Made by a program: the position numbers and the translations under genes. This document shows, in pieces, positions 7,051 to 59,023 of a stretch of DNA of 64,000 bases. The stretch spans positions 288,001-352,000 of the forward strand of contig JAWLHY010000002.1 in NCBI GenBank assembly GCA_041690135.1. The letters are read 5' to 3'. Position 1 is the stretch's first letter. The number at the start of each line of letters is the position of its first letter. The notes under the pieces were generated by a model, which ran no database searches, was not told the DNA's origin, and saw nothing but the letters and a program-made list of their open reading frames with translations. Source of the DNA: Armatimonadota bacterium (GTDB lineage: Bacteria; Armatimonadota; SYMT01).

Positions 7051-9015
7051 ATGGTCGAAGAACGCGTCCTGGTGATGGCCCCAGAAGGGGACGTGGAGTT
7101 GTGCCGGACCCTGCTCGCCCCGACGGGCGCGACCGTGGAGTGGTGCGAGGATCTGCCGCACTTATGCCGGCTGCTACAGGCGCCGGTAGGTGTTGTGGTG
7201 CTCGGTGAGGCAGCCCTGGCATCTCCGGAGATCGATACGTTGGTGGCGATCCTGGAGAGCCAGCCCGCCTGGTCGGAGTTGCCGGTACTGGTGCTGGCGG
7301 ACGAGGTTTCGCCGGCGGTCGGTGAAGTTTCCTACCCGGTGGAGCGCCTGGGGAACGTCACCTGGATCGAGCGTCCCCTGCGCCCTTCCACGCTCGGTAC
7401 CGCCTTACGGGTTGCCCTCCGGTCCCGGCGCCGTCAGTACCAGATCCGGGCGCACCTCTCGGAACGCGCAGCCGCCGAACGGGCCCTGCGCGAGAGCGAG
7501 GAGCGGTTCCGGATTGCACTGGAAGCCGGGCGCCTGGGCTCCTGGCAGCACGACCTCCGCACCGATGAGCTCACTGCTTCGGATCTTCTCCGGGCTCACT
7601 TCGGGCGTGCGCCGGGCGCGCCGCTGACACACGACGAGGTCCTCGCCGCCGTGCATCCGGAGGACCGCGAGTGTGCGAAGGAGACCATTCGCCAGGCGAT
7701 CCGGGCAGGTGAACCCTACGTACTGGAGTACCGCGTGGTCTGGCCCGACGGTTCGGTCCACTGGCTCATGGTTCGTGGGCGCGCCAGTTACACGGATGTG
7801 GGAGTGCCGATAACCACCTTCGGCGTGACCCTCGACGTTACCGAACGAAAGGACGCCGAGACACGGCGGGTGGAAGTGGAGGAGCGGTTACGCCAGGATG
7901 CCCGCAGCAAGGATGAGTTCCTTGCGATGCTGGCTCACGAGCTGCGCAACCCCCTCGCCCCATTGGCGAACGCCATCGAGATCATGCGGGCGCGTCCCGG
8001 ACGCGAGAAGGGAGAGCGAGCCCGGCACTTGGCGGAGCGCCAGTTGCGCCATCTCCGGCGCCTGGTGGACGATCTCCTGGATGTTTCCCGGATCAACAGC
8101 GGAAAGATCACGCTCAAGCGGCAGCGGGTGGACCTGGTGGTGGCCGTGGAGAACGCGCTGGAAGCGGCCGGTGTCTTCATCGAGGAGTCCGGGCATCAGC
8201 TCGAGGCTTCGCTCCCTCCGGAACCCGTCTATGCGGACGTGGATCCGGTACGCCTGGAGCAGGTGGTGAGCAATCTCCTCCACAACGCAGCCAAGTACAC
8301 GGAGCGCGGCGGGCGCATCCGGGTGGCGTTGGAAGTGGCCGGCGATACCTCTCGCCTCCGGGTCCAGGATACCGGCATCGGGATCTCGCCCGAGCTGCTG
8401 AGCCGCGTGTTCGAACTCTTCATCCAGGGGGAGCGCGGGCTCGATCGCTCCCAGGGTGGGCTGGGGCTGGGGCTGACGCTGGTCCGCAATCTCGTGCATC
8501 TCCATGGGGGCACAGTGGAGGCCTACAGCGAGGGCAGTGGCCGGGGCAGTGAGTTCGTGGTGACGCTCCCGTTGGCGGCCACGCTGGAAAACCTGCCCCC
8601 CTCGAACCTACCCCCCACTCCCTCCGTAGCTCGGGACCAGTACGGCAACAGCTCCCTGCGGCTCCTCGTGGTGGACGACAACCGCGATTCCGCCGACACC
8701 CTCTCGGAGTTGGCGCAGCTTTGGGGCTACGAGGTGGAAACCGCCTACGACGGCCCTACTGCCCTGGAACGGGCGGGGGAGTGGGTGCCGGATTTTCTGC
8801 TTCTGGACATCGGGATGCCCGGCCTGGATGGCTACGAGTTGGCGCGCCGGCTGCGGCAGGATCCGCGCTTCACCCAGGTCATGTTGGTGGCCCTCACCGG
8901 CTACGGTCGCGAAGAAGACGTGGCCCGGTCCCGGGCCGCCGGTTTCGACCACCATCTCGTCAAGCCGGTAGACGTTGAAGAGCTGGAAAGGCTGCTCCGT
9001 GGAAGAGAGGGCTGA
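7051..9015 (+). CDS. Hybrid sensor histidine kinase (PAS, HisKA, HATPase, receiver)
   Basis: FLAMLAHELRNPL H-box, NLLHNAAKYT, DTGIGI, GLGLGL, receiver VVDD...DIGMP...KP. Confidence 0.93.
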   Translation: MVEERVLVMAPEGDVELCRTLLAPTGATVEWCEDLPHLCRLLQAPVGVVVLGEAALASPEIDTLVAILESQPAWSELPVLVLADEVSPAVGEVSYPVERLGNVTWIERPLRPSTLGTALRVALRSRRRQYQIRAHLSERAAAERALRESEERFRIALEAGRLGSWQHDLRTDELTASDLLRAHFGRAPGAPLTHDEVLAAVHPEDRECAKETIRQAIRAGEPYVLEYRVVWPDGSVHWLMVRGRASYTDVGVPITTFGVTLDVTERKDAETRRVEVEERLRQDARSKDEFLAMLAHELRNPLAPLANAIEIMRARPGREKGERARHLAERQLRHLRRLVDDLLDVSRINSGKITLKRQRVDLVVAVENALEAAGVFIEESGHQLEASLPPEPVYADVDPVRLEQVVSNLLHNAAKYTERGGRIRVALEVAGDTSRLRVQDTGIGISPELLSRVFELFIQGERGLDRSQGGLGLGLTLVRNLVHLHGGTVEAYSEGSGRGSEFVVTLPLAATLENLPPSNLPPTPSVARDQYGNSSLRLLVVDDNRDSADTLSELAQLWGYEVETAYDGPTALERAGEWVPDFLLLDIGMPGLDGYELARRLRQDPRFTQVMLVALTGYGREEDVARSRAAGFDHHLVKPVDVEELERLLRGREG

Positions 9016-9089
9016 ACCGGGGAATCTTCCCCATCGCGCAGCACCCTTTCGCCTCTTGCGCGCGGTGAGTGGCGAATAGGTGAGCCGCC

Positions 9090-9251
9090 TTACCTTGGAG
9101 GGCGGCACCGTTCCCTCGCTCCACTCCTCCAGCAGGCCTCGACCAGGGAAGTGAGAAGCGTGCCGAGCAAGGTGAACAGGAGCGAGAACGCCTCGAAAAT
9201 CGCGAGGAAGAGATAGACGCACAGCTCTGCCAGCAGGAGCAGCAGTTCCAC
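9090..9251 (-). CDS. Putative 53-aa hydrophobic small protein (below the ORF track cutoff)
   Basis: GTG at 9251 after GGGAGAAG; MELLLLLAELCVYLFLAIFEAFSLLFTLLGTLLTSLVEACWRSGARERCRPPR*; GC-rich third codon positions. Confidence 0.4.
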   Translation of the reverse strand: MELLLLLAELCVYLFLAIFEAFSLLFTLLGTLLTSLVEACWRSGARERCRPPR

Positions 9252-9312
9252 GAAGTCTTCTCCCGTAGCCGGAAGGGAAGGCTCTCCGCACCGGCCGGCA
9301 GCCCCGGTCGGG

Positions 9313-9792
9313 TTACTTGATGCGGATCTCGCCGATGCGGGTCCCTTCGGGCAAGTTCTTCACCTGTTGGTGGACCTGCCCCAGCACGGAAAAGTGCACC
9401 TGGATATCCGTGGGCACTAGGTTGTCGCCCGAGTACTCCCCGCCGAGCGCGGGCGGGTGCTGGAAGCTGTAGATCTGACCGGGCGCCAGTGTTTTCCCGG
9501 AGGCACGCAAGTTCAGGATCAGTGACGGCACGAAGGAATCCATCACGAATTCCCGGTCGCCCAGCAGCGCTCGGAACTCGTCCACGGAGTCGGCGACTTT
9601 CTCCAGCGCACCGCCGCCCACGTCCAGCAGGTGAACGGTTCCGTCCTCCGTATCCTGGAGGTAGGCGTCACCCAGGGCCGAAAGCAGGATCGGCTGTTTT
9701 GCGGAACCGATGAGCCAGTGCCAATCGGTAAGGAGCGCTTCCCGGTCGAGATGCTGGAAGTTGACCGTGAGGTCGTTCATGGTGATCGGCAT
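9313..9792 (-). CDS. DUF1851/Tdi1-like toxin-immunity protein
   Basis: WHWL...LSALGD.YL, L.PGQIYSF.HPPALGGEY..DNL motif; ATG 9792 preferred. Confidence 0.7.
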   Translation of the reverse strand: MPITMNDLTVNFQHLDREALLTDWHWLIGSAKQPILLSALGDAYLQDTEDGTVHLLDVGGGALEKVADSVDEFRALLGDREFVMDSFVPSLILNLRASGKTLAPGQIYSFQHPPALGGEYSGDNLVPTDIQVHFSVLGQVHQQVKNLPEGTRIGEIRIK

Positions 9793-9989
9793 GGAAAGCC
9801 TCCTTCTGTGCCGGCTGCGACCGGCCATCGTTCGCCGCAGCGGGCAACTCCCCGCATGGTAGTGAACGATCATTCCATCTTTCGGCCCGGCGACGGGGAA
9901 CTCCTCTCTCGGCAAACCTCCTCCGGGGGAGTGGCTGACGCTGGACGCCGGTGTCACTTACCACCCGTGCCTTCAGAGTACAGCCTGCC

Positions 9990-10149
9990 TGGGGATCACC
10001 GCGACCACCAACGGACGCGCCGACCTCATAGCGAAATGGCCAATGTCGTATTCGCGGACGGGCACGTGAAGGCCGTCAAGCGGGACTCCCTCACTGCCGT
10101 CAACCAGGGGAACAATCTCCTCCCGTGGGGTTACACCATCGTCCCCTAG
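9990..10149 (+). pseudogene. 3' remnant of a DUF1559/H-X9-DG gene
   Basis: HSEMANVVFADGHVKAVKRDSL...YTIVP* resembles the C-terminus of 150..863; no pilin N-terminus upstream. Confidence 0.6.
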
Positions 10150-10336
10150 GAAACGGATCCCCTTTCGGACAATCATCGCCAACTGCCCGTCACCTTCGCA
10201 AGGAGTGACGGGCTTCTTCATGGGCTAACCTCTACCTGGCGACTCACCGCACTGGCTCCCGACCCTCGCGGCGGTCCCCGAGCGGAATGACCAGCACCCG
10301 CAAGGCCGGCTGCTCACGGTAGAGGACTCGCGACTC

Positions 10337-11113
10337 ATGTCCCTTAGGTTCCATGCGGCGATCGCCGAACTGCTGGGCATCGTCCCCGTGCCCGCCCCCG
10401 AAAGAATGGCCGCCCTCGAGCAGCGCGAAACGGTGTGTAAAACCCGTTTCCCCGCGTCCGTCCGGGAGTGGCTTTCGCTACCGGGTGTCGAGAGCATCTT
10501 TCATGACCGGAGCAACGACGACCACCTCGAACCGGTGGACGCCCTGGGTGATCCGGGGGAGACGGCCCAGGGCTGGCTCCGCGTGGCCAAAGAGAACCAG
10601 TGGGTGGTGGCCTGGTACGTGCGGCTCGATGAAGGAGAGGACCCGCCCGTCTACCACAACAACGACGAGTGGAATGAAGACCTGGCGCTTACGGACTGGC
10701 AAGAGACTTCCCCCTCCTTCAGCGCCTTCATCTTCGATATGTTGGCCGACGACTGCTTCGGCCGGGGTTGCTCCGGTCTGCTCCTGTCGGCGGTGGATCG
10801 GCTTCCCGGCCCGGAGGAGTTGAAAGCTCTGGAGAGCTGGTTCCGCAAAGGCCCCGTTACGTGCACTCCCGACTACAGCGTGTACCGCTTTGCCGACGCG
10901 CAGACGCTGGTCACGATCGAAGCCGGTTCCGCGTTCGAATTGCCGCCGGGAAAGGCGAAGTGGCGTCTTCGCACGGCTGATGCGGAGGCGCTCTTCAGTG
11001 CCGGCCGGAAGCTGCGGGGTCTCGGGACGATGGCCGAAACGCTGAGCGCGCAGGACTGCACCCCGGAAGCCAGGGGGTGGTGCGACTGGGTCCTGGAGCG
11101 ATTGCGGCAATAG
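10337..11113 (+). CDS. SMI1/KNR4 (SUKH)-like immunity protein
   Basis: LEQRE...RFPASVREW, ENQW..AWYVRLD..EDPPVY, SFSAFI pattern; GAGGA RBS. Confidence 0.65.
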   Translation: MSLRFHAAIAELLGIVPVPAPERMAALEQRETVCKTRFPASVREWLSLPGVESIFHDRSNDDHLEPVDALGDPGETAQGWLRVAKENQWVVAWYVRLDEGEDPPVYHNNDEWNEDLALTDWQETSPSFSAFIFDMLADDCFGRGCSGLLLSAVDRLPGPEELKALESWFRKGPVTCTPDYSVYRFADAQTLVTIEAGSAFELPPGKAKWRLRTADAEALFSAGRKLRGLGTMAETLSAQDCTPEARGWCDWVLERLRQ

Positions 11114-11141
11114 CCATCCAGGCGCCCACTGGAAAAACTGG

Positions 11142-11171
11142 TTGACGGAGGTTCACGGGGTGAGGTATTCT
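11142..11171 (+). promoter_or_regulatory. sigma70-like promoter for the Y RNA/rsr transcript
   Basis: TTGACG (11142-47), 18 bp spacer, TATTCT (11166-71); structured RNA begins about 6 nt downstream. Confidence 0.55.
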
Positions 11172-11267
11172 AAAATCTTCCGCTCCGAAAGGACGAGACT
11201 GGGCTGGTGAAAGCCCGGTGGGCGGGAGGTCGGTTCGCCGCCGTTAAGGACGGCTCCGGCTCGATAC

Positions 11268-11428
11268 GCTGAACGTAGCTCAACGGGAAGAGTCCTGCGC
11301 CTTTGCAAAAGACCCCTTCCCCTCGGCGCCCCTTGCCCGGTAACGGGCCGTAGTCAGAGGGTTATCTACACTGAGCCCATCGCTAAAGGCTCGCGAGGAG
11401 ATGCAGGTTCGAATCCTGCCGTTCAGCA
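11268..11428 (+). ncRNA. tRNA-like Y RNA (YrlA-like) in canonical tRNA order, long stem replacing the anticodon arm
   Basis: Acceptor GCTGAACG/CGTTCAGC; TA-GCTC-AACGGGAA-GAGT D-arm; GCAGG-TTCGAAT-CCTGC T-arm; about 105-nt insert with GCCGTAG..GAGGGTTATC; about 100 bp upstream of the TROVE gene. Confidence 0.75.
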
Positions 11429-11440
11429 TCGTCGGAATCA

Positions 11441-11510
11441 GGAAGCGGGCCGGAGCGCCTGGGTTATCGAGCAGACGATCAACCCCCAGACGCACCACTT
11501 GCCTGCTTCC
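11441..11510 (+). ncRNA. Second Y-RNA-like bulged hairpin (YrlB-like RNA or rsr 5' UTR element)
   Basis: GGAAGCGGGC/GCCTGCTTCC closing stem; GCCGGAG and GGGTTATC motifs shared with the upstream RNA; pyrimidine-rich 3' tail. Confidence 0.5.
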
Positions 11511-11533
11511 CCTTTCCTTTCGGAGTGGTGGCC

Positions 11534-13189
11534 ATGAGCTATCTGCAGAACGTTCTCTCCACCCGGCAAACGCCGCAGTCCGCCCCGATTCCCGGCACCG
11601 ACCAGGTTCCCAACAGCGCGGGCGGTTTTGCGTGGGCCGTCGACGACTGGACCCGGCTTGACCGCTTTCTGATCCTTGGTAGTGAAGGCGGCTCCTACTA
11701 CGCCGGCGAGCAGAAGCTGACGCTGGAGAACGCGGCTACCGTCAAACGCTGCGTGGAACTCGACGGCGAGCGGGCGGTCCGCCGCATCGTGGAGATCAGT
11801 GACGCCGGGCGCGCTCCCAGGAACGATCCCGCGATCTTTGCGCTGGCGGTGGCGTCGGCCTGGGGGGAAGCCTCCGCGCGGTCCGCGGCCTTCCGTGCCC
11901 TTCCCCGGGTTTGCCGGACCGGCACGCACCTGTTTCACTTCGCCGGTTACGTAGAGGGGATGCGGGGCTGGGGACGGGGCCTCCGCACGGCGGTGGCTTC
12001 CTGGTACTCGGAGCGGCCGGCGCGGGATCTCGCCTACCAGGCGGTGAAATACGGGCAGCGGGATGGCTGGAGCCATCGCGACCTGCTGCGGCTGGCGCAC
12101 CCGAAGGCGGAGCCCGATTCCGCGCACAACGCCCTCTACCGCTGGATCGTGAAGGGCTGGGAGGGCGTTGATGAGGAGCCCCATCCGGACCCGGACCTGC
12201 GCCTCATCTGGGCCTGCGAGCGGGTGAAGCGCGTCGGGACCCGCGAGGAGGTGGCGGCGCTGGTTGCCGAGTACGGCGTGCCGCGGGAGGCGGTACCCAC
12301 CTACTGGTTGGGGCAGGCGGTCGTGTGGGAGGCGCTCCTCCAGGGGATGCCGATGACGGCTCTCATCCGGAACCTGGCCACCCTCACCCGGGTGGGCCTG
12401 CTCACCCCGCACGCCGACGCCACCCGCCGGGTGGTGGCGCAGTTGACGGATGGAGAGCGACTCCGCCGGGCGCGGGTTCATCCCATCCAGGTGCTCTCGG
12501 CGCTCCGCACTTACGCCCAGGGGCACGGTGAGCGGGGCAATCACCAATGGGCGCCGGTGGCCCAGGTGGTGGATGCTCTCGACGCGGCCTTCTACACCGG
12601 TTTCGGCAACGTCTCGCCCACCGGCAAGCGTTGGATGCTGGCCCTGGATGTTTCCGGGTCGATGGCGTGCGGCCTGATCGCGGGGGTTCCCGGCCTCACA
12701 CCGCGGATCGCTTCCGCGGCAATGGCCCTCATCACGGCGGCGGTGGAACCGAATCATAGCCTGGTTGCCTTCACCGCGGGGCAAGGTGGTTACGGCGGAC
12801 AGTGGGGCGGCGGAGTCTCCGGCCTCACGCCCCTGGCCCTATCCCCCCGACAGCGGTTGGACGATGTGGTCAAGACGGTCGCCGCCCTTCCCATGGGCGG
12901 GACCGACTGCTCGCTGCCGATGCTCCACGCTACGAAGCACCGGATCCCCGTCGACTGCTTTGTGATTTACACGGACAGCGAGACGTGGCACGGGCAGATC
13001 CACCCCGCCCAGGCGCTCCGGGAGTACCGGGGCCGGATGGGCATTCCGGCCCGCCTGGTCGTCTGTGGGATGCTCTCCAACGGCTTCACCATCGCCGACC
13101 CGGACGATGCCGGCATGCTCGACGTCGTCGGCTTCGACACCGCCACCCCCAACCTGATCAGCGATTTCGCCGTGGGCAACGGCGCGTAA
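11534..13189 (+). CDS. rsr: Ro60/Rsr RNA-binding protein (TROVE + vWA)
   Basis: QVPNSAGGFAW..DDW.RL.RFLILGSEGGSYY, KY.QRDGWSHRDLLRLAH, MP.TALIRNL, DVSGSM MIDAS, GGTDCSLPM, YTDSETW, GMLDVVGFD. Confidence 0.96.
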   Translation: MSYLQNVLSTRQTPQSAPIPGTDQVPNSAGGFAWAVDDWTRLDRFLILGSEGGSYYAGEQKLTLENAATVKRCVELDGERAVRRIVEISDAGRAPRNDPAIFALAVASAWGEASARSAAFRALPRVCRTGTHLFHFAGYVEGMRGWGRGLRTAVASWYSERPARDLAYQAVKYGQRDGWSHRDLLRLAHPKAEPDSAHNALYRWIVKGWEGVDEEPHPDPDLRLIWACERVKRVGTREEVAALVAEYGVPREAVPTYWLGQAVVWEALLQGMPMTALIRNLATLTRVGLLTPHADATRRVVAQLTDGERLRRARVHPIQVLSALRTYAQGHGERGNHQWAPVAQVVDALDAAFYTGFGNVSPTGKRWMLALDVSGSMACGLIAGVPGLTPRIASAAMALITAAVEPNHSLVAFTAGQGGYGGQWGGGVSGLTPLALSPRQRLDDVVKTVAALPMGGTDCSLPMLHATKHRIPVDCFVIYTDSETWHGQIHPAQALREYRGRMGIPARLVVCGMLSNGFTIADPDDAGMLDVVGFDTATPNLISDFAVGNGA

Positions 13190-13193
13190 ATTA

Positions 13194-13236
13194 GAACAAA
13201 AGTTTTATGACGACGCCGGAAGTACTGCGGTATTAT
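13194..13236 (+). promoter_or_regulatory. Candidate retron promoter with adjacent LexA-type box
   Basis: GAAC-AAAA-GTTT (13194-13205) abutting ATGACG (13207-12), 18 bp spacer, TATTAT (13231-36). Confidence 0.45.
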
Positions 13237-13238
13237 GT

Positions 13239-13503
13239 CGGTGGAAAGGGCAGTCTGGGGAGCGGGTTGTTGCTAGCATTCCGCCTGCGGCGTTTCGCCG
13301 TGGCTGCAGTGAAGCTCGCTTCACAGCACCGGCCACCGATGCCACTCAGCTCGGCAATAGGGGTACCCCTCTTATTCGCTGCGCTGGGGCGACGTGGTCC
13401 ACTACGAATAAGAGGGGTACCCCTACCGCCGAGCCTACAGTGATCGGTCCCGGTCCTCGGTGGGTAAGTAGCACTCTTCCGCTCTCCAGGCGCCTTTCCA
13501 CCG
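13239..13503 (+). ncRNA. Retron ncRNA (msr-msd)
   Basis: Terminal inverted repeats 13239-13275 / 13469-13503; putative branching G13276 in TAGC; msr hairpins CGGCGTTTCGCCG and GTGAAGCTCGCTTCAC; msd hairpin with perfect 21-bp stem 13358-78/13405-25; retron RT downstream on the same strand. Confidence 0.85.
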
Positions 13504-13532
13504 TTTTCGACGCGCCCGCGAGGAGTGCCGGA

Positions 13533-16500
13533 ATGACGCCTTCCGATGGAGCCAGGGCCCGGAGCCTGCTGCCCCAGGCCGGGAACGAGGACGAGGAGTT
13601 TCTCCTCCGGTTCGCGCGGGAGGCGCCGGCCCTTTACGGTACCTGGCGCTACCTGAAAGGCCTGTATAAGGATGCCGAGGCGGCGGCTTCCCCGGCGGTG
13701 CTCGGCGTGCTCATCGGTCGACTGGACACCCTGGACCCTCTGGGCCTCCGAGCAGAGACAATCGGCAACGGTCCGGACCTTTCCGGCGCGCTGGCGGTTT
13801 CGGTGGAGCCTCCGCTGGCCTGCGTCACCCTCTGGTCCGGCTTCGTGCTCCTGGACCTTTCGGACCCCGCGGCGCCCCGGCAGGTGTGCCGGGAGAATGC
13901 GGGCCGGACGAAACGCGCGGTCCTGGCGGGCGGCCGAGCCTACGTGGAACTGGAGGGAGAGAGGAACGCCGCGGACCGCATCCTGATCTTCGACCTCTCC
14001 AACCCGCGGCGGCCGGTGGATATCGGCGCCGTGGAGGTGCGGGGGGTCCGCGGGATGGCGGTGGTGGGGCAGCACCTCATCCTGGCCGAGGGCGTGGGGG
14101 CGGAGCGGGGTCGCCTGCGGGTGTTCGACGTGGCGGATCCCGGCCGGCCGGAACCGGTGGCGAACCTGGCGCTCCGCGACGTCTCTGGGATGGCGGTGTC
14201 CCACCGCCGGGCGTACGTGGCGAGCGGCGCCGGCCAGAGCCGTGCTCCCGGCCTGCACGTGGTCGACCTTTCCGATCCGCGGCAGCCCACGGTGCTCGGG
14301 TTCTTCCCGGTCAGCGCTGCGGGTGTGGTGGTGGACGACACGTACCTGGAAATCCAGCGGCGCGGCCGGACCCTGTGGGTCCTCGATCCCTCGGTGCCGC
14401 CGCCGGCAGCCGCGCAGCCTCCCGCGCCCAACCCGGCGGAAGCCCGGCCCGGACTGTTGCAACGGGTGACCAATCTGTTCCAGCGGCCCTCCGCCGAGCG
14501 AGCGGCAGAGGGGGCGTCTTCCCTGGCCCATGGCGTGTACGAGCGCGGGAACGACGGACGGATCCAGAGTGCGGCGGTCCACCGGGGTCACCTCTACCTG
14601 GCCCAACAGTGGGGCGGCCTGGAGGTCGTTTCTCTCGCGGAGCCGGGCGTGCCCAGGCGGGTGGGAGAAGTTTCCACCGGGAATTCGCCGTTTCTGGCGG
14701 TTTCGGGTGACCTGCTGTTCGCGTTTCCCCAGTATGGGCAATGGATGGTTTTCGACGTCTCCACGCCCGCGCACCCCGCGCAGCTCGGCCTGCCTCCGAG
14801 CTCGCGGACCGTGGGGTACATGAAGCGCCGTGCTCGCCGCTTCCTGCGCACGCTGGAGGCGCCGGAGCGTTTCGTGGAGACGGCCTACCATGCCCTGCTG
14901 GAAGCGGGCCGCGGCCGGAAGGAGCTCGACCTGGAGCAGCAGTGGGTCTCGGTCGACCTGCTCTACGGCCGGTCCGGACGGTACGTGCAAACCCGTCACG
15001 GGCGGGGGCCTTACGTGGCCCGGCAACCGGAGCTTCGGTCGCTGCGCCGAACCCGCGAGGAGCGCCGGCCCGAGGCGTGGGACCAGCGGCCGAACCTGGC
15101 GTGTGCCCTGTTCGCCGAGCCGGATCTGCCCTGGCAGGTCCACGAGTGCATGCTCAAGATCTTGCAGGCCAACCGCGAGCCCGTGCCGGCGCTCGGCCCG
15201 GGGCTGCGCCTGCGGTTCCTGCGCAGTGGGTCTCCCCTGCTGATCTTGCTGGCCGCCCGCGAGGTCGCTGGCGAGATCGAGGCCGGGACGAAGCTCGACG
15301 GCGAGCCGTCGGCCCGTGCGTACTTCTACGCGAACGCCACCCGTCGGAAGCAGATCGCGTCCCGGCTGGCCGCCCGCTCCGGATCTCCGGGTTGGGCCCG
15401 CCCCTTTGCCGCCACCCTGTTGGAGCTGATCGTCGCGGCGTTGGAGAGCGGAGGCATCTCCCGGCGCGTCGTGAGCGCGGCCGGTCTGCTCACCCGGAGC
15501 TTCTCGCCGTTCATCCCCGGAGAACGCCTTCTGCCCCTGGCGGTTCGGATGGTGGAATCGGGCCGGCCGGAGTTGCTCGAGCTCGTGCTGGCGGGGTTCC
15601 GCGGCGCCACGCTCAAGTCCCTTCCGGAATGGCTCGCGCTGTGGGGACAACTGCCCGAAGAGGCCCGGGAGCGAGCCTGGGGGGCGCTAGAATCCGGAAT
15701 GCGGCGGACCCGCATCACCTATGCGGCGGCGCTCGAACTGGTAACGGCGGAATCGGAGGCGGTCCGCGAAGGGGGCTGGCGCGTGCTGCAACTGCTCTCG
15801 CCGGAGCCGAAGCTGCTGAGTGCGCTCTGGGAGCAACTGCTCTCCACCACCGAGGAGACCCCGGCACTGCGCACGGCCGTCGGTTCCGCCGCGGCGCTCG
15901 CGTTGCTGGCGCGATCGGGATTGAGCCCGGACCGGCTGACCGAGCGGCTCACCGCGATCCCTTCCCTGGCGGGACTGCTGTCGCCGGAGACGATGGAGGT
16001 CGTCGCCGGATCGGTGCCGGTCGAGGGGCTCCTGTCGCTCGTCGCGGCTATCCCGGAGGCGCGCTGGACCGTGCTGCGCGGCGCGGTCCTGGAAGGCTTG
16101 CGGCAGTCCGGCCGGCTCGGCGCGTTCTGGAAGGTCGTGCCCTCGGCGCTGGGCGACCCCGTCTTGCAGCAGCGATTGCTGGAGGATCCTGCCGTCGTCG
16201 CCTCGCTGCTGACCGTGGAAGACCCGGCGGTGCTGGAGATCCCCGATCCGCCGTTTGAGGACCTGCTCTACCAGTGGGCGATTTCCCACGCCGGTCTGCT
16301 TCCCCGCGGCTCCTCGGGATTGTTGACCGCGGCCACTCACCCCCTGCCCCGGGTGCGCGATTGGGCCCTGGAGCGGGTGCGGGCCGAGGGGATGGACGTG
16401 CCCTTCGCTCTCCGCCTGCTGGAATCGACCGTTCCCGCCTCCATGGCGGTGGCGCAGGAGTTCTTCACCGCCGCCGCACCCGGCAGCCTGGATGAGATGA

Positions 16501-16934
16501 CCTACGCCCTGGCCTTGAGCGATAGCCCGGAGAGCGCGGTCCGCGCGGTGGGGCGGCAGTTCATCCACGACCGGTGGAGCACCCTGCCGCACTCCGACCT
16601 GCTGCGGGCCCTCTCGGAGCATGGGGACGCGGAGATGAACCGCTTCCTGGCGGACCTCCTTCTGCAAGAGGCGGACGAAGCCGTGGAGCGGTCATCGGAG
16701 GTCCGTGACTTCGAGCGCGGCGTGCTCCGTGCCCGCAACCGCGGGCGGCGCGCCAAGGAACGGGTGAAAGCCCGCCTCTCGCACACGGAGACGCCGGATG
16801 TCTCCCTCCTGCTGAGCCTCGCCCGCAGTGGAACCCCACGCGACGCCGAGTGGGCGATGAGCGAGTTGGGTCGCCTGGCGGCCTCCGGGGTCGCCGTGGA
16901 GGGGGTCAGCGTGGAAGGAGTGGCCGGGGTTTGA
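13533..16934 (+). CDS. Retron-associated large protein: helical (ARM/HEAT-like) repeats with an inserted LVIVD-repeat beta-propeller
   Basis: ATG 13533 after AGGAG; at least six LVIVD-type repeats (LLDLSDP, LIFDLSNP, RVFDVADP, HVVDLSDP, EVVSLAEP, MVFDVSTP); Leu/Ala-rich helical C-terminal two thirds with DSPESAVR and NRGRRAKE. Confidence 0.65.
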   Translation: MTPSDGARARSLLPQAGNEDEEFLLRFAREAPALYGTWRYLKGLYKDAEAAASPAVLGVLIGRLDTLDPLGLRAETIGNGPDLSGALAVSVEPPLACVTLWSGFVLLDLSDPAAPRQVCRENAGRTKRAVLAGGRAYVELEGERNAADRILIFDLSNPRRPVDIGAVEVRGVRGMAVVGQHLILAEGVGAERGRLRVFDVADPGRPEPVANLALRDVSGMAVSHRRAYVASGAGQSRAPGLHVVDLSDPRQPTVLGFFPVSAAGVVVDDTYLEIQRRGRTLWVLDPSVPPPAAAQPPAPNPAEARPGLLQRVTNLFQRPSAERAAEGASSLAHGVYERGNDGRIQSAAVHRGHLYLAQQWGGLEVVSLAEPGVPRRVGEVSTGNSPFLAVSGDLLFAFPQYGQWMVFDVSTPAHPAQLGLPPSSRTVGYMKRRARRFLRTLEAPERFVETAYHALLEAGRGRKELDLEQQWVSVDLLYGRSGRYVQTRHGRGPYVARQPELRSLRRTREERRPEAWDQRPNLACALFAEPDLPWQVHECMLKILQANREPVPALGPGLRLRFLRSGSPLLILLAAREVAGEIEAGTKLDGEPSARAYFYANATRRKQIASRLAARSGSPGWARPFAATLLELIVAALESGGISRRVVSAAGLLTRSFSPFIPGERLLPLAVRMVESGRPELLELVLAGFRGATLKSLPEWLALWGQLPEEARERAWGALESGMRRTRITYAAALELVTAESEAVREGGWRVLQLLSPEPKLLSALWEQLLSTTEETPALRTAVGSAAALALLARSGLSPDRLTERLTAIPSLAGLLSPETMEVVAGSVPVEGLLSLVAAIPEARWTVLRGAVLEGLRQSGRLGAFWKVVPSALGDPVLQQRLLEDPAVVASLLTVEDPAVLEIPDPPFEDLLYQWAISHAGLLPRGSSGLLTAATHPLPRVRDWALERVRAEGMDVPFALRLLESTVPASMAVAQEFFTAAAPGSLDEMTYALALSDSPESAVRAVGRQFIHDRWSTLPHSDLLRALSEHGDAEMNRFLADLLLQEADEAVERSSEVRDFERGVLRARNRGRRAKERVKARLSHTETPDVSLLLSLARSGTPRDAEWAMSELGRLAASGVAVEGVSVEGVAGV

Positions 16935-17011
16935 GAGTTGAAGGCGAGTGTGAGGGGTAGGGGGACGAGTAGGAGTAAGAGTAAGAGTAGAAATCGGTTG
17001 GTACGGGATCA

Positions 17012-17151
17012 CGGGCAGTTGCACTGCCCGCGAAATACTTCGTCCCGCAGTTGCACTGCGGAAGCCTATGGTTTCGCAGTCGTTTCGGATCACCCAGATC
17101 GCCAATGCTGGTGCCAGGGCGGGGGCAGCGCAGTGCAACTGCGCACGAAGT
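17012..17151. repeat. Cluster of palindromic GCAGTTGCACTGC elements (REP/BIME-like)
   Basis: Copies at 17012-30 and 17045-61 (direct) and 17128-44 (inverted); 17038-60 can pair with 17129-51. Confidence 0.7.
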
Positions 17152-17251
17152 GTGACGGCTGCAGTCCAATCCATACGGACACATGTGCTGCAGCCGATCA
17201 GCCTGGCTTCCGCGGTTCGAAATACGCATCACGAATCACGCATCAAGACCT

Positions 17252-19186
17252 ATGCAGTTCACCCAATCCTATTCTCATCCGAGTACGGCCAGTATGGGGC
17301 CGGAGGGGCTCCGGCTGGACGTGGCCGCGGAGCAGCACCGGCCGCCGGTGTTCTTGCAGGCGATGGTGCGGGAGAGCCTCTCCTACGCCCGGCTGATGCT
17401 GGCGCTCTACCAGGTGGTGCAGGGGGATCTGCGCTCGAAGACGCGGGATCACAGCGCCTACCAGGAGTGGGTGCAGCAGCGTTATTTGGACGAGCTCTCG
17501 CCGCAACTGGCGGCCAACCGCGCGCGGATTCCGGGCCTGCTGCAGCAGCGGGACGAGTTGAGCGGCCGGATCTCGGAGCTGCATAAGGAAATCCGCGAGC
17601 TGGAGAAGCGGACCTCCGGCGCGGAGTTCCACAGCGCGAAACAGAGGTACTTCAACTGGCTGTGGAAGCACGACAAGGATGCCTGGTGGGTACTCGATCC
17701 CGTGGTGAGCGTCCATCCGGATGCCCTCATCTTCGAAGTCTTCTCCCAGGATGAATCGAGTTATGGCCGGGTCACGGTCCCCTCGGACCGGCTGGACGTG
17801 CTGGGGAACGTCGCCTACGGGACCACCAATATCGACTTCAGCCGCGCGCTGGCCCGCGAGATGGAGCGGGTGCGGAACTACCGTCCCGCCTGGCTCCAGA
17901 TCGGCGCGGAAGGCGTGACGATGGCCACTGGTGCCGGGGAAGCGGTGGAGAAGAAGATCGATCTGCCCCCGTCCTGGGTGCGCGGCTTCCTGCAGGTCCA
18001 GTCCGCGGCGGCGTTCGGCACCGTCGATCTGACGCTCAGCGCGGAGACGGTCGCCGAAGTGCTCTCCCTGCTGCGCCGGCAACGCGAGGAGGGCAGCCCG
18101 CGCTCCCTCCGGTTCCGTCTCGCCCCCGGCGAGTTGCCGGTCCTGATCGTGGAGCCGTGGAACGTCGAAATCCGGGAGTCGCAGCATGTGTATCGCGGCG
18201 ACCACCGGGGCGAAATCCGGCTGTGGGGGCGCCGGCGCCTGGCGGTCCTGGAGAATGTCCTGCCGCATGCCGAGGCGGTGCAGGTGCGACTGCTGGGCAC
18301 CGGGATGCCCTCCTATTGGAGCCTGCACCTGGGCAGCCACCGGTTCGACCTGGGTCTTTCCGGCTGGACCCGCAACGATTGGGCCAGGGCGGCCCGGTTC
18401 GATCTGCTGGCCTCCACCGGCGCCGTTTCGGAGCGGGATTTTGGAATTGCGGCCGCGAAACTGGAGGAGCGCCTGCGCCTGACCCCGGAGGAGCTGGCTA
18501 CGGTGGGCGGTCTCCCGCAGTCGGCCGCTGCCGCGGCCCTCCAGCAGCTCTGCGCGCGCGGGCAGGCGATGTTCGACCCCACCACGGGCGCCTACCGCTG
18601 GCGACCCTTGTTCGCCCACCCGGTGGAGCTGGAAAGCGACGAGGATAAGCGCCTGGCTTACGCGCGCCGCGTGCTGGAAGGCAACCGGGTGAAGTGGACC
18701 GGTAAGCCGGAAACAGTGCAGGACCGGGTGCGCCACACCGCCACCGTGCGCGGCGAGCGGGGCGAGAAGAACTTCCGGGTGATCCTGGAGCTGGACGCGG
18801 ACGGCCGGGTGCAGTACGCCGAGTGCACCTGTAGCTGGCACCGGCGGGAAAAGCTGCGCAAGGGCCCCTGCGGGCACATCCTGGCGGCCACGGCCCTGGC
18901 TTCCCAACTGGTGGAAGCAGGCACCGGAGGGCCGATCAACGCCCCCGATCCGCAGCGCTTCGCCGGCAAGACCTTTGTATTTACCGGGGCCCTCACCCGC
19001 TTCACCCGGGAAGAGGCGCACGCCATGGTGGAACAGGCCGGCGGAAAGCCCGGCAGCGACGTCAGCCGGAACACGGATTACCTGGTGGCGGGAGAGCGCG
19101 CCGGCTCCAAGCTCACCCGCGCCCGTTCCCTGAACATCCCGGTGCTGACGGAAGAAGAGTTCTTGAACATGCTTCAAGGGCGGTAG
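17252..19186 (+). CDS. Retron-associated SWIM zinc-finger protein with C-terminal BRCT domain
   Basis: LDPVVSVHPD..IFEVFSQDESSYG, SWVRGFLQVQSA, CTC..x..GPCGH SWIM motif, GKTFVFTG.L..FTREEA...GG..SVS..TDYLVAG..AGSKL..A BRCT; ATG 17252. Confidence 0.85.
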   Translation: MQFTQSYSHPSTASMGPEGLRLDVAAEQHRPPVFLQAMVRESLSYARLMLALYQVVQGDLRSKTRDHSAYQEWVQQRYLDELSPQLAANRARIPGLLQQRDELSGRISELHKEIRELEKRTSGAEFHSAKQRYFNWLWKHDKDAWWVLDPVVSVHPDALIFEVFSQDESSYGRVTVPSDRLDVLGNVAYGTTNIDFSRALAREMERVRNYRPAWLQIGAEGVTMATGAGEAVEKKIDLPPSWVRGFLQVQSAAAFGTVDLTLSAETVAEVLSLLRRQREEGSPRSLRFRLAPGELPVLIVEPWNVEIRESQHVYRGDHRGEIRLWGRRRLAVLENVLPHAEAVQVRLLGTGMPSYWSLHLGSHRFDLGLSGWTRNDWARAARFDLLASTGAVSERDFGIAAAKLEERLRLTPEELATVGGLPQSAAAAALQQLCARGQAMFDPTTGAYRWRPLFAHPVELESDEDKRLAYARRVLEGNRVKWTGKPETVQDRVRHTATVRGERGEKNFRVILELDADGRVQYAECTCSWHRREKLRKGPCGHILAATALASQLVEAGTGGPINAPDPQRFAGKTFVFTGALTRFTREEAHAMVEQAGGKPGSDVSRNTDYLVAGERAGSKLTRARSLNIPVLTEEEFLNMLQGR

Positions 19187-19193
19187 AAATCCG

Positions 19194-20621
19194 ATGTTAA
19201 CTCCTACACGACAGGATAGAGCCTACTGGCGGGAGCGGGTCCGGGAGATCGGGCTCACCGGGGTGATCCGGGAGGAGATGACCCGGCTGGGGTTCTGGCC
19301 GCCGAACGAGGAAGTGGGGCGGCAGGCTGCGGAGGCGATGGCGGAGCTGCGGGTGCGGTACCGCGATCTGGCGGAACTCCGGGAACAGCTACAGCGTCTC
19401 GAGCAGGAGTTGGGGGATGCCCAGAACATCGCCGCGATGATCGCCGAGATTCGCAAGCGGCGGATTGAGCGGGTGCGCGCGCAGCGGGAAGTCCGCCGGG
19501 AGCAGCGCGCCCGGGAGCGCGAGGAGCGGCGACGGCAGGATGAAGAATGGCGCCGGACCACCTTGCCGTTCCTGGGTCGCGGCGTCTCCGGCGGGTTGAT
19601 CTACACCGGTGGTGACCCGGTGCGGCTGGAGTCGCTGGGCCTGCCGGTCGTGGAGACGGCGGTGGATCTGGCGGCGGCGATGGAGATCCCGGTGGAGGAG
19701 CTGACCTGGCTCACCTATCACCGGGGCGCGGCCCGCACGGACCACTACCATCGCTTTACGATCCCGAAGCGGCATGGGGGTGTAAGGGTCATCTCCTCGC
19801 CCAAGCGGAACCTGCGCGCCGCCCAGCGCTGGATCCTGGCCTCCATCCTGGCGGAGCAGGAGGTCCATCCCGCGGCGATGGCGTTCCGCCCGAAACGCTC
19901 CATCGTCGATAACGCGGTGGCGCATGCGGGCCGGGCGGTGGTCGTACGCGTGGACCTGAAGGACTTCTTTCCCTCCATCACCTTCCGGCGGGTCAAGGGG
20001 CTGTACGAGTCGTTCGGCTACAACGAGGGGATCTCGACCCTCCTGGCGCTCCTCTCCACGGAGCCGCCCCGCGTGGCTCTGATGGTGGACGGCCAGCGCC
20101 GTTTCGTCAGTCTCGGGGATCGCCAGCTACCCCAGGGCGCCTGTACGTCCCCCGCCATCACGAACCTGCTTTGCCGGAAGCTGGACCGTCGCCTGGAGCG
20201 CGCCGCATCCGCGTTCGGGTTTACCTACACCCGCTATGCCGACGACCTGGTCTTCTCTCACGACCGGGAGGAGGCGCCGGTGGGAGCCATGCTGACCCTG
20301 GCGCGCTCCATCCTGTCCGACGAGGGCTTCACCGTCAACGAGGAGAAGACCGCGGTGATGCGGCCCCAGCACCGGCAGGTAGTGACCGGGATTGTCGTGA
20401 ACGGCGAGCCGGCCCGGGTCTCCCGGCGGGACCTGCGCCGGTTCCGGGCTTTCCTGCACCACTGCGAAACCGAGGGCTTCGCAGTGATGTCGCAGCGTCT
20501 CGGCCGGGATGCCCGCGCCTACGCGGCCGGCTATCTCTCCTTCATCCACATGGTCAACCCGGAACAGGAAGAGCGGATCCGCGCGCGGCATCCCTGGCTC
20601 TCACGCTGGGGTGAGGCGTAA
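19194..20621 (+). CDS. Retron-type reverse transcriptase (Mx162/type XIII-like)
   Basis: IPKRHGGVR.I..P, NAVAH (region X), DLKDFFPSI, LPQGACTSP, YADD, VVTG (region Y); N-terminal coiled-coil extension; no fused effector domain. Confidence 0.93.
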   Translation: MLTPTRQDRAYWRERVREIGLTGVIREEMTRLGFWPPNEEVGRQAAEAMAELRVRYRDLAELREQLQRLEQELGDAQNIAAMIAEIRKRRIERVRAQREVRREQRAREREERRRQDEEWRRTTLPFLGRGVSGGLIYTGGDPVRLESLGLPVVETAVDLAAAMEIPVEELTWLTYHRGAARTDHYHRFTIPKRHGGVRVISSPKRNLRAAQRWILASILAEQEVHPAAMAFRPKRSIVDNAVAHAGRAVVVRVDLKDFFPSITFRRVKGLYESFGYNEGISTLLALLSTEPPRVALMVDGQRRFVSLGDRQLPQGACTSPAITNLLCRKLDRRLERAASAFGFTYTRYADDLVFSHDREEAPVGAMLTLARSILSDEGFTVNEEKTAVMRPQHRQVVTGIVVNGEPARVSRRDLRRFRAFLHHCETEGFAVMSQRLGRDARAYAAGYLSFIHMVNPEQEERIRARHPWLSRWGEA

Positions 20622-20657
20622 GGGCCGATCCTTCGGTTCTCGGGGCGTATTCAGAGT

Positions 20658-21428
20658 TTACGGGGTGACCAGCCGGCCCACGACCAGCGACTTCTGGGTT
20701 TGATCGTACATCGTGGAGCCGTTGTCCGTGCTCCAGCAGTGGCCCACCACCTGGTCGTCCGCCGCATCGGCAAAGATCAGCATCTTGCCCTTGCCCACCC
20801 CCTCGTCAGGACCGCCGGCATCGGGGCGGGTCACGCGGGTGTCCTGCAGGTCGTGGGCATCGCTGCTGCTGTCGATCACCGTGACCGCGTACTTCCGGAT
20901 GCCGTTCGCTTCCGACAGGAGCACGGGGCTACCGGCCACCATCGCCATGTGTCCCGTGTTGCTCGTCTGGACCGTCAGGTTCTTGATGGCGATGAAGTCG
21001 CCCGCGGTCCACTGGCTCACCTTGCCCAGCGTCACGAAGTGCAGGTGCTTGTGCGCCAGCTTGCTGGTGCAGGTCTGGGCTCCCAGGAACCAGTCGTGGT
21101 AGGTCTTGGCAAACGGGCTCTTGGAGCCGATGCAGCGGTAGAAATCGGAGTCGGTATGGCCGTAGCTGTGCTGGATGAGCCGGGTGATGAACTGGCCGCA
21201 CACCGTGTTGTTGGAGGGGGTTACCCCGCTTCCAGGCCACACCACCGTGCTGCTGGTGTTGTAATCGTTGTTCGCCGCCTGGATGCTGATGACCAGCCGC
21301 TCCGCCTGCGTTGCGTGGAAGGGCGTGACGGAGGCGAACCCGCGGACCGCACCCGAGAGGGCGGCCGCGACCGTGGCGGCGACCAGGGCGCCGCGGAAAA
21401 CCTGCTTCTGGGTGGTGTTGGCGTTCAT
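20658..21428 (-). CDS. Secreted hypothetical protein, possible papain-like (NlpC/P60/CHAP-type) Cys-His fold
   Basis: Signal-like N-terminus; TVCGQFIT, GDFIAI, TGHMAMV, VIDSS motifs. Confidence 0.5.
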   Translation of the reverse strand: MNANTTQKQVFRGALVAATVAAALSGAVRGFASVTPFHATQAERLVISIQAANNDYNTSSTVVWPGSGVTPSNNTVCGQFITRLIQHSYGHTDSDFYRCIGSKSPFAKTYHDWFLGAQTCTSKLAHKHLHFVTLGKVSQWTAGDFIAIKNLTVQTSNTGHMAMVAGSPVLLSEANGIRKYAVTVIDSSSDAHDLQDTRVTRPDAGGPDEGVGKGKMLIFADAADDQVVGHCWSTDNGSTMYDQTQKSLVVGRLVTP

Positions 21429-21717
21429 GTTCTTGCTACTCCCTCCGGCCTTCTTTTGGAGCCGGCTGCGTTCCGGTTGACTGTAGTTCTTGCGGCCGGG
21501 GCCTCGCTCTAGCCAGGTAGAGTATGAACGACGGCGGGGATTTGGCTTGTGAAACGGGTCACGAGGAGAGGGTGAGTTGTTCCGGCGGTGATCGAGTGTC
21601 ACGGTAGCCGGAGTTCCGGGTACTCTCAAGAAAGGGGTCCCTTTCGGACAGGATCCGGGGGCCACGGGTGGAGAGCTGCGGCGCGACGGCACAACGGCGC
21701 CAGGGATGGGAGGCGCA

Positions 21718-22713
21718 ATGCAGGGACAAACGGAGCGAACGGGACGGATCTTGCTCACCGGGGCGACCGGATTTGTCGGCCGCCGGCTCTGGGGGGTGCT
21801 GACGCGGGCGGGGCACGAAGTCGTTTGCCTCACCCGTCGCGTGGAGACAGCGCGCGCGAAGTGGCCGGAGCGGACCTGGGTGCAGGGCGATGCCGCCGAC
21901 GAGGAGGACCTGGTCCGGGCGATGGAGGGCTGCACGGCCGCGTACTACCTGATGCACGGCATGGCCGAGCACGTCGCGGACTTCCGCCGCCTGGAACGGG
22001 AGACGGCGGAGCGGTTCAACCGGGCGGGAGAACGGGCGGGGCTCCAACGGACGGTCTACCTGGGCGGGTTCGCTCCCCAGGGCCCGCCCACGGAGCACCT
22101 GGCCAGCCGCCTGGAGGTGGGAGAGGTGCTCCGCAGCGGCCCGGTGCCCACCATCGAGCTGCGTGCCAGCATGATCGTGGGGCACGGCAGCCTTTCATGG
22201 TTGATGGTTCGCGACCTCGCCGCGCGCCTGCCCTGCATGGTCCTGCCGAAGTGGCTCGAATCCCGCACCCAGCCCGTGGCGGTCGATGACGTGCTGCAGG
22301 CACTGGTGCGCGCCCTCTCGCTGGATGCCGGCGGCAACCCTTCCTTCGACCTCCCGGGGCCGGAGATCCTTTCCGGGCGGGAGATCCTAGAGCGAACCGC
22401 GCAGGTGATGGGCCTTCCGCCCCCATTCATGGTCCAGGTGCCGGTGCTCTCGCCCTGGCTCTCGTCCCACTGGGTCCACTTCGTCACCCGCGCCGAGTGG
22501 GCGGTCGCCCGAGAAGTGGTGATCGGCATGGCCCACGACTTCCTGGCCCGCGACGGCCGGTTCTGGGACCTGGCGGGCATTCGTCCCATGGCGTTCGAAC
22601 AGGCGGCGAAGATCGCGCTGGCCGAAGAAGCGCAGGAAGGGACGATATCCGGCTTCTGGGGATCGGTTGAGCGAGGCCTCCGAAGGCATGCCGTACGCGC
22701 CACGGTCCCTTAG
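21718..22713 (+). CDS. NAD(P)-binding atypical SDR/epimerase (YbjT-like)
   Basis: ILLTGATGFVG, AYYLMHGM, HLASRLEV, LRASMIVG.GS.S. Confidence 0.85.
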   Translation: MQGQTERTGRILLTGATGFVGRRLWGVLTRAGHEVVCLTRRVETARAKWPERTWVQGDAADEEDLVRAMEGCTAAYYLMHGMAEHVADFRRLERETAERFNRAGERAGLQRTVYLGGFAPQGPPTEHLASRLEVGEVLRSGPVPTIELRASMIVGHGSLSWLMVRDLAARLPCMVLPKWLESRTQPVAVDDVLQALVRALSLDAGGNPSFDLPGPEILSGREILERTAQVMGLPPPFMVQVPVLSPWLSSHWVHFVTRAEWAVAREVVIGMAHDFLARDGRFWDLAGIRPMAFEQAAKIALAEEAQEGTISGFWGSVERGLRRHAVRATVP

Positions 22714-23215
22714 TTCTTTTTGAAGGTGAACCACTGGATCGGCCGGCACCGGTATCGCGGACCCCGGGAGCCGGAAGAGAAGTAAGCCGGATAGGGGTGA
22801 GTAGGAAAGAAAAGAAACCGACGAGTGCCGTTACTCGGCGCTCAAAATCGAAGGGTGGCCCGGCGCGGTCCTGGGGGGAATGGCGCTCGGGTCGGGATGG
22901 TGGACCGGAGACAGTGCCCCACTGGCCATACCCACGGCCAATCCCAGGCCGATGCACGCCAGGCGCGCCAGCAGGCGGAGGCGAGCGGGAATGATTACCG
23001 GCTCAAACGCGTCTTCCCGCAGTCCTGTGATGCCCCGAAATCGTACCGGGGCTATCCGGCTGCGGCCCCACAACCTCGGCTTCGTGCTATCCAGGTCCAC
23101 GCTTCCGTCCCCACTGGTCTGCCGCTCACGCCTGCTGAATCTCTCGGCAAGCTGATTTTGCCCGTCTCCCCATAACCGCAGGTGAACGAAGCCCTAAAGC
23201 GGCATTAAATGCGCT

Positions 23216-58949: not shown

Positions 58950-59023
58950 CGGGGTGTGGCGCAGCTTGGTAGCGTGCCTGCTTTGGGAGCAGGAGGTCGC
59001 AGGTTCAAATCCTGTCGCCCCGA
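58950..59023 (+). tRNA. tRNA-Pro(TGG)
   Basis: CGGGGTG/CGCCCCG acceptor, CCTGC-TTTGGGA-GCAGG anticodon arm, GGTTCAAATCC T-loop; CCA not encoded. Confidence 0.96.

Follow-up and report, generated by a model that had tools for sequence, protein, structure and literature searches.

Genes and gene order at the locus

The window, i.e. the whole stretch of 64,000 nt analysed here, lies in an Armatimonadota genome of 9.1 Mb and contains a three-gene operon preceded by a structured RNA element at 13239–13503 (Table 1). The order is RNA, HEAT/ARM and WGR-like gene, SWIM-BRCT gene and reverse transcriptase (RT) gene, all on the + strand. The RT is a member of the retron clade, matching the PADLOC profile RT_XIII (7e-156) and the Pfam domain RVT_1 (4.9e-28) at residues 190–399, with YADD present. 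The second protein is recognised by SWIM_XIII (6.8e-171) and carries a BRCT domain (Pfam, 6.5e-13) at residues 592–663, encoded at 18956–19186 of the window. For the first accessory protein matches to WGR_XIII (7.8e-26; residues 931–1083 only, that is about the last 150) and to HEAT-ARM_XIII (3.9e-12) were obtained, and Pfam adds only an LVIVD repeat at 216–255. The greater part of this protein is unexplained by domain matches. These PADLOC and Pfam matches make up the gene set of a type XIII retron, namely a clade-10 RT, a SWIM-type primary protein and a HEAT/ARM or WGR accessory, the WGR_XIII match being partial; the initial annotation had already read the downstream genes as a retron.

The SWIM and RT genes are just 7 bp apart, so that there is no room for an RNA gene adjoining the RT. 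The distance of 5.7 kb given earlier between RNA and RT is correct (end of the 3′ arm a2 at 13503, RT start at 19194). A mechanical open reading frame with a GTG start (13440–16934) overlaps the RNA. Translation of the first accessory gene probably begins at the ATG at 13533, which is preceded by GAGGAG at 13520–13525, and the homologue in the related locus L018 aligns from residue 1 of the protein started there; the ORF track thus seems to extend wrongly into the RNA, as was suspected. The RNA ends 29 nt before this first start codon of the operon, and on its other side a Ro60/TROVE gene ends 50 nt 5′ of it. The RNA call completes the annotation of a type XIII retron and corrects the start of its first accessory gene.

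Table 1 Features of the RNA element, its operon and related loci (positions refer to the window unless a locus is named)
Feature	Position	Strand	Basis or remark
Ro60/TROVE + vWA gene	11525–13189		TROVE 3.7e-48, vWA_Ro60 3e-62
Promoter-like site (ATGACG, 18-nt spacer, TATTAT)	13207–13236	+	−10 box a few bases 5′ of a1
a1, 5′ arm of terminal stem	13239–13275	+	Fold, inverted repeats, duplex energies
Predicted priming (branching) G in TAGC	13276	+	First unpaired base after a1; conserved column
msr hairpin 1	13285–13303	+	8 bp, TTT loop; covariation; most conserved element
msr hairpin 2	13305–13328 (arms 13305–13315/13318–13328)	+	Fold, inverted repeat, covariation
msd template region	13328–13468	+	Long stem-loop 13335–13448 inside two short junction helices
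Junction helices of msd region	13328–13331/13451–13454 and 13337–13340/13443–13446	+	Fold, covariation
a2, 3′ arm of terminal stem	13469–13503	+	Fold, inverted repeats, covariation; TTTT next at 13504–13507
First accessory gene, HEAT/ARM + WGR-like protein, 1133 aa	13533–16934	+	PADLOC WGR_XIII, HEAT-ARM_XIII
Second accessory gene, SWIM-type protein with C-terminal BRCT, 667 aa	17183–19186	+	PADLOC SWIM_XIII, Pfam BRCT
Retron RT, 475 aa, long N-terminal extension	19194–20621	+	PADLOC RT_XIII, Pfam RVT_1
Array loci, first four	L001 3189–4097; L018 7188–7810; L021 7670–8549; L022 3082–3885		Tandem msr-msd units
Array loci, last four	L034 7064–7702; L037 7000–7597; L041 7815–8391; L043 7441–8024		Tandem msr-msd units
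PARP-linked gene, sister group	L044 2444–3826	+	Also in L045, L046, L048, L049
PARP-linked gene, sister group	L047 7383–8675	−

Architecture and fold of the RNA element

The inverted repeats described for the ends of the element were found again by a repeat search, pairing 13239–13249 with 13493–13503 (11 nt, 100 % complementary) and 13255–13265 with 13479–13489 (11 nt, 91 % complementary). Between them lie the arms of the long msd hairpin at 13335–13378 and 13405–13448 (44 nt, 82 % complementary), whose core (13358–13378 with 13405–13425) is a perfect stem of 21 bp. The minimum-free-energy structure of 13230–13510 pairs 13271–13275 with 13469–13473, leaves G13276 as the first unpaired base and continues with two small hairpins and then the long hairpin. 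Its energy of −160.5 kcal/mol compares with a shuffle mean of −108.4 (sd 5.3; z = −9.83), and 0 of 200 dinucleotide shuffles reach this stability. The folding that had been recommended as a check returned a stable structure, and it bore out the terminal repeats, G13276 in TAGC as the first unpaired base, the two small hairpins and the perfect 21-bp stem, the arms spanning 13335–13448.

The element thereby combines paired terminal repeats (a1/a2), a conserved G, lying in an AGC/TAGC context immediately 3′ of a1, and, of the one to three msr hairpins looked for, two, followed by a long msd stem-loop with 44-nt arms; a retron-clade RT is encoded with it on the same strand. A review places the priming G in a conserved AGC, with TAGC as the commonest form (PMC6868368). 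The promoter-like site in front of a1 was found once, with 0.1 expected in shuffles. As a descriptive, uncontrolled count, a TAnnnT box is present within 30 nt 5′ of a1 in 25 of 36 aligned copies.

Covariation and conserved bases

The alignment A1 comprises 36 full copies of the RNA. RNAalifold predicts 44 pairs for them, 37 with compensatory changes. A structure of 50 pairs, consisting of the RNAalifold-type structure and the second hairpin, was tested: 83.7 % of the cells pair, versus 36.8–48.0 % with the partners slid by 1–3 columns, and both sides change in 41 of the 50 pairs. Neither the covariation score nor the percentage paired was reached by any of 500 shuffles; the measure of ‘further pair types’ was not above the shuffles (483 of 500 reach it). 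The inner pairs of a1/a2 (helix 1) are 86 % paired, with changes on both sides in 5 of 6 pairs. For msr hairpin 1 (helix 2) the values are 97.2 % of cells and 5 of 8 pairs, for msr hairpin 2 (helix 3) 77.8 % and 4 of 6, and the two junction helices (4 and 5) are paired to 98.6 and 89.6 %. In the msd stem (helix 6) both sides change in all 22 pairs; its sequences are almost unrelated among the copies and complementarity is always kept. G-U pairs are common (e.g. UG in 21 of 36 rows at columns 99/115) and fit a transcript of the + strand only.

The outer arms of a1 and a2 are not alignable by sequence, and duplex energies were therefore compared. Cognate arms reach a mean of −37.1 kcal/mol (n = 36), versus −18.1 (sd 6.3, n = 1236) for arms from different loci, pairs within one locus having been left out of the latter. 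For 28 of the 36 a1 arms no a2 pairs better than the cognate one, and most of the exceptions are copies that have an extra hairpin and, behind it, a priming site located further upstream. Conservation among the 36 copies is at least 90 % at G13276 and C13277, which correspond to G50 and C51 in row 1 of A1; the base before the priming G (column 88) is A in 23 rows and G in 8. After the core, a run of three or more T follows within 45 nt in 32 of 36 copies, again an uncontrolled and descriptive count. The covariation of a1/a2, the conserved G-C, the msr hairpins and the covarying msd stem together support the msr-msd architecture that was proposed, and the 36 covarying sequences represent a clean set for modelling this RNA.

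Two further details of the variable part were seen. A GTAG or CTAG recurs at a fixed place in the otherwise variable msd 5′ arms (A1 columns about 176–186), where the window has GGTAC (about 13358–13368). The msd loop is conserved among the copies of A1, reading GCGCTGAG ... CCCAC.

Conservation among relatives and link to the RT

Among 401 sampled genomes of the same phylum, 59 contain RT relatives at E up to 1e-60. The comparison covered 41 loci, 40 of which were fetched from RT-positive genomes and one of which came from a related-locus search. According to tblastn the gene order HEAT-type, SWIM, RT is found in nearly all of them. The SWIM-protein matches reach the C-terminus in most loci of the main clade, and the proteins of a sister group (L044–L049) have 571 aa, with matches that stop near residue 570. 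By blastn, the window RNA and the regions 5′ of the first gene share 84–97 % identity over 33–82 nt in the msr part, and all 16 related elements that were folded show the same architecture.

A profile of the core, which spans the priming site and everything up to a2, was run over the 41 loci and the window. It matches full-length, on the operon strand and just upstream of the HEAT-type gene in each of the 25 loci that include the start of this gene and enough DNA in front of it, and in part at the contig ends of two others (L042, L054). Five loci end before the RNA region (L019, L026, L031, L055, L056). The core profile gave no match in the remaining nine, which are L025, the sister group and the distant L052 and L053. 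In the window there is one match, at 13273–13473. For the whole clade, a search for the template RNA thus has to look in front of the first operon gene, several kilobases away from the RT.

A covariance model of the msr part with 88 positions (R1), built from 16 copies including that of the window, has a single match in the 9.1-Mb genome, and with filters off it gave no other credible match at 9000–24000 of the window. Since the window is among the seeds, its own match arises by construction, and what counts is that no others were found. In the phylum R1 matches were obtained in 16 of 151 genomes (assumed to be the handles G000–G150, as all listed handles fall in this range), namely in 15 of 21 RT-positive genomes versus 1 of 130 RT-negative ones. 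Six of the 21 were missed: two are cut at contig ends (G002, G025), two have core-profile matches which the filtered search lost (G124 and G096, the latter with a sister-type operon in addition), G074 has a sister-type operon only, without this RNA, and G073 has a distant RT outside the loci examined. The RT-negative genome with the RNA is G010, a fragmented assembly. It holds two copies of the RNA (G010:C238:2671–3092) and no RT was found in it; a second copy was also seen in G044 (G044:C65:6453–6542) on a contig other than that of the operon. These extra copies in G010 and G044 may reflect assembly gaps or orphan templates. With Rfam at gathering thresholds only a tRNA (58950–59023) was found in the whole window, and at E up to 10 the region 12900–13900 gave chance microRNA-type hairpins only and no retron or Y RNA family.

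RT-adjacent form and comparison with known systems

In some distant loci a match lies close to the RT. With filters off, R1 matched the SWIM–RT intergenic region of L053 at 9576–9655 (22.4 bits, E 0.0034) and gave a weak match upstream of the RT in L052 (15.5 bits, E 0.14). A tblastn search of plasmid records added an RT of Methylobacterium bullatum with 49 % identity over residues 126–457 (NZ_LR743510.1, L060). The order in L060 is WGR_XIII (1.5e-251), SWIM_XIII (7e-213), RNA and RT_XIII (6.6e-176), and R1 matches at 8404–8488 (26.1 bits, E 1.2e-4). Folding of 8340–8660 (z = −6.0) gives a long stem and a terminal stem together with the first hairpin seen in the window. This locus therefore shares the order of the three protein genes, the first msr hairpin, the terminal stem and the long msd stem with the window, but has the RNA between SWIM gene and RT, the classical RT-adjacent place. 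The R1 matches in L060 and L053 indicate that one RNA family takes two positions within type XIII, adjoining the RT in some loci and heading the operon in the clade of the window.

Type XIII retrons include Retron-Mxa1 (Mx162), Mxa2 (Mx65), Sau1 (Sa163) and Nex2 (Ne144), and their RNA is described, with covariance models for it (PMC7736814, Mestre et al. 2020). The published models are A_firmi, B_Ne144 and C_Mx162/Mx65. The window has the RT_XIII clade with a long N-terminal RT extension, the SWIM primary and the HEAT/ARM/WGR accessory in common with this type, as well as an msr-msd with terminal stem, small msr hairpins and a long msd stem. It differs in that its RNA is not contiguous with the RT and precedes both accessory genes, that the SWIM protein has a BRCT domain and that the first accessory protein matches WGR_XIII at its C-terminus only. 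The predicted transcript of 265 nt is similar in size to the 241 nt given for Mx162, and the priming context is TAGC, in contrast to CAGC for Mx162 and Sa163 and GAGC for Mx65 (PMC6868368).

Accessory ORFs between msd and RT are known from other retron types, and in the group of Retron-Vch1/Vc95, Eco4/Ec83, Eco7/Ec78 and Sen2/St85 the RNA likewise leads the operon with the RT after the accessory genes (PMC6868368); RT clade, accessory proteins and msr sequence of this group are, however, unrelated. The element is thus very probably of a known kind in a less usual position. A survey of 2026 scanned 10 kb on each side of the RT with type XIII covariance models and lists 143 candidates for type XIII, including 26 from Planctomycetota (PMC13712802). 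The expectation of the initial annotation that pipelines would miss the RNA consequently holds for RT-adjacent searches only, but not for a 10-kb-flank search of this kind.

Alternative explanations

From its place the RNA could also be a cis-acting leader of the operon mRNA, i.e. an attenuator, terminator or RNA-stability element, which is not reverse transcribed. The short distance to the first start codon, the TTTT directly after a2 and the T runs that follow the core in most copies (an uncontrolled count) would suit such a role, and contigs from RNA libraries that bridge a2 and the gene start (see below) speak weakly for it. On the other hand, in L060 and L053 the same msr hairpin and architecture directly precede the RT instead of the first gene, eight loci carry tandem arrays of two or three complete units, and the conserved G-C after a1 together with a long stem that varies in sequence and always pairs are hallmarks of retrons. 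A role as leader in place of a template is accordingly improbable; the two roles are compatible and do not exclude each other.

The Ro60/TROVE-vWA gene upstream raises the possibility of a Y RNA, the partner of the Ro60 protein. Bacterial Y RNAs, too, are structured, have a long terminal stem and adjoin the Ro60 (rsr) gene, which in the window ends very close to the RNA. However, tblastn matches to the Ro60 protein occur in none of the 41 operon-bearing loci, the RNA tracks the retron operon and its RT instead, and no Rfam Y RNA family was matched at E up to 10. The identification as a Y RNA is therefore very unlikely and the adjacency of Ro60 looks incidental. The long inverted repeats at the ends would also suit a dispersed palindromic repeat, or else a miniature mobile element, which came to lie here by chance. 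However, the element occurs once in the 9.1-Mb genome, keeps the same place and orientation with respect to the operon in 25 loci and has covarying helices, so that this explanation can practically be neglected.

Proposed function and expression

We consider it highly probable that the msr-msd of a type XIII retron is encoded at 13239–13503 as a non-coding RNA gene, from which msDNA would be made starting at G13276. Transcription would begin a few bases after the TATTAT box (13229–13234), and the ends of the RNA would pair through a1 and a2. The RT, although encoded 5.7 kb downstream, would bind the conserved msr hairpins, prime from the 2′-OH of G13276 and, starting at 13468, copy the template leftward across the long hairpin. 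From retron engineering work, retron RTs are known to use RNAs provided on a separate transcript. The product is expected to be a branched RNA–DNA molecule, an msDNA of about 135–140 nt with a stem of about 40 bp, the DNA of which would begin CTTACCCACC; the complement read downward from 13468 does start in this way, as had been claimed. For a predicted ssDNA of 139 nt (13468 to about 13330) the folding energy is −46.3 kcal/mol (z = −8.66). An msDNA length of about 140 nt is reasonable, the presumed 3′ end being a stop guessed from the conserved junction helices. The msDNA might have a holding or sensing role for the two accessory proteins. To our knowledge, a biological role of type XIII retrons is not established. 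With TTTT directly after a2 and 29 nt left to the start codon, the RNA might also influence how far transcription reads through into the operon genes.

Nine public runs carry small shares of the stretch (at most 0.14) in the form of contigs. Four of these runs were aligned to the window, where the parts without cover are uninformative; a soil DNA contig of 532 nt covers 13188–13557 with 15 differences. Two contigs from two RNA libraries of one study cover 13390–13594 and 13423–13595; they are about 97 % alike to the window, with six differences and one gap each, and bridge a2 and the start of the first gene. These contigs show that a close relative exists, and as they carry no transcript ends, strand or level they are at most a weak hint of transcription.

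Tandem arrays and the sister group

Tandem arrays of two or three complete msr-msd units lie upstream of the operon in 8 of 25 related loci (Table 1). Each unit has its own pairing a1 and a2 arms, and the msd stems differ between the units. The window represents the single-unit form of this operon-head arrangement. In the array loci one RT may serve several templates. A literature search brought up no report of tandem or multiple retron ncRNAs, its scope for PMC7736814 and PMC13712802 being their main text. A broader proposal, which we put forward tentatively and regard as somewhat less probable than its opposite, is that the template RNA of the clade is a separate gene at the operon head with its own promoter and a terminator-like end, which in about a third of the loci was multiplied into arrays of two or three units sharing msr and loop and differing in the msd stem; one RT would then make several msDNAs, and read-through past a1/a2 would set the ratio of template to mRNA.

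Two leads come from the related loci, several template RNAs per RT and operons led by a PARP-like gene in the sister group. The RT of these HEAT-type/SWIM/RT operons is about 50 % identical, and in all six loci (L044–L049) a gene with WGR, PARP_reg and PARP catalytic domains lies directly upstream on the same strand. A literature search for retrons with PARP and WGR yielded nothing relevant. R1 with filters off gave no credible match in L025, L044, L045 and L049. Hairpins of up to about 57 bp are seen between the PARP-like and the large gene, at about 3812–4051 in L045 and about 3489–3640 in L049 (RT on the + strand), and these long hairpins may represent a different template RNA.
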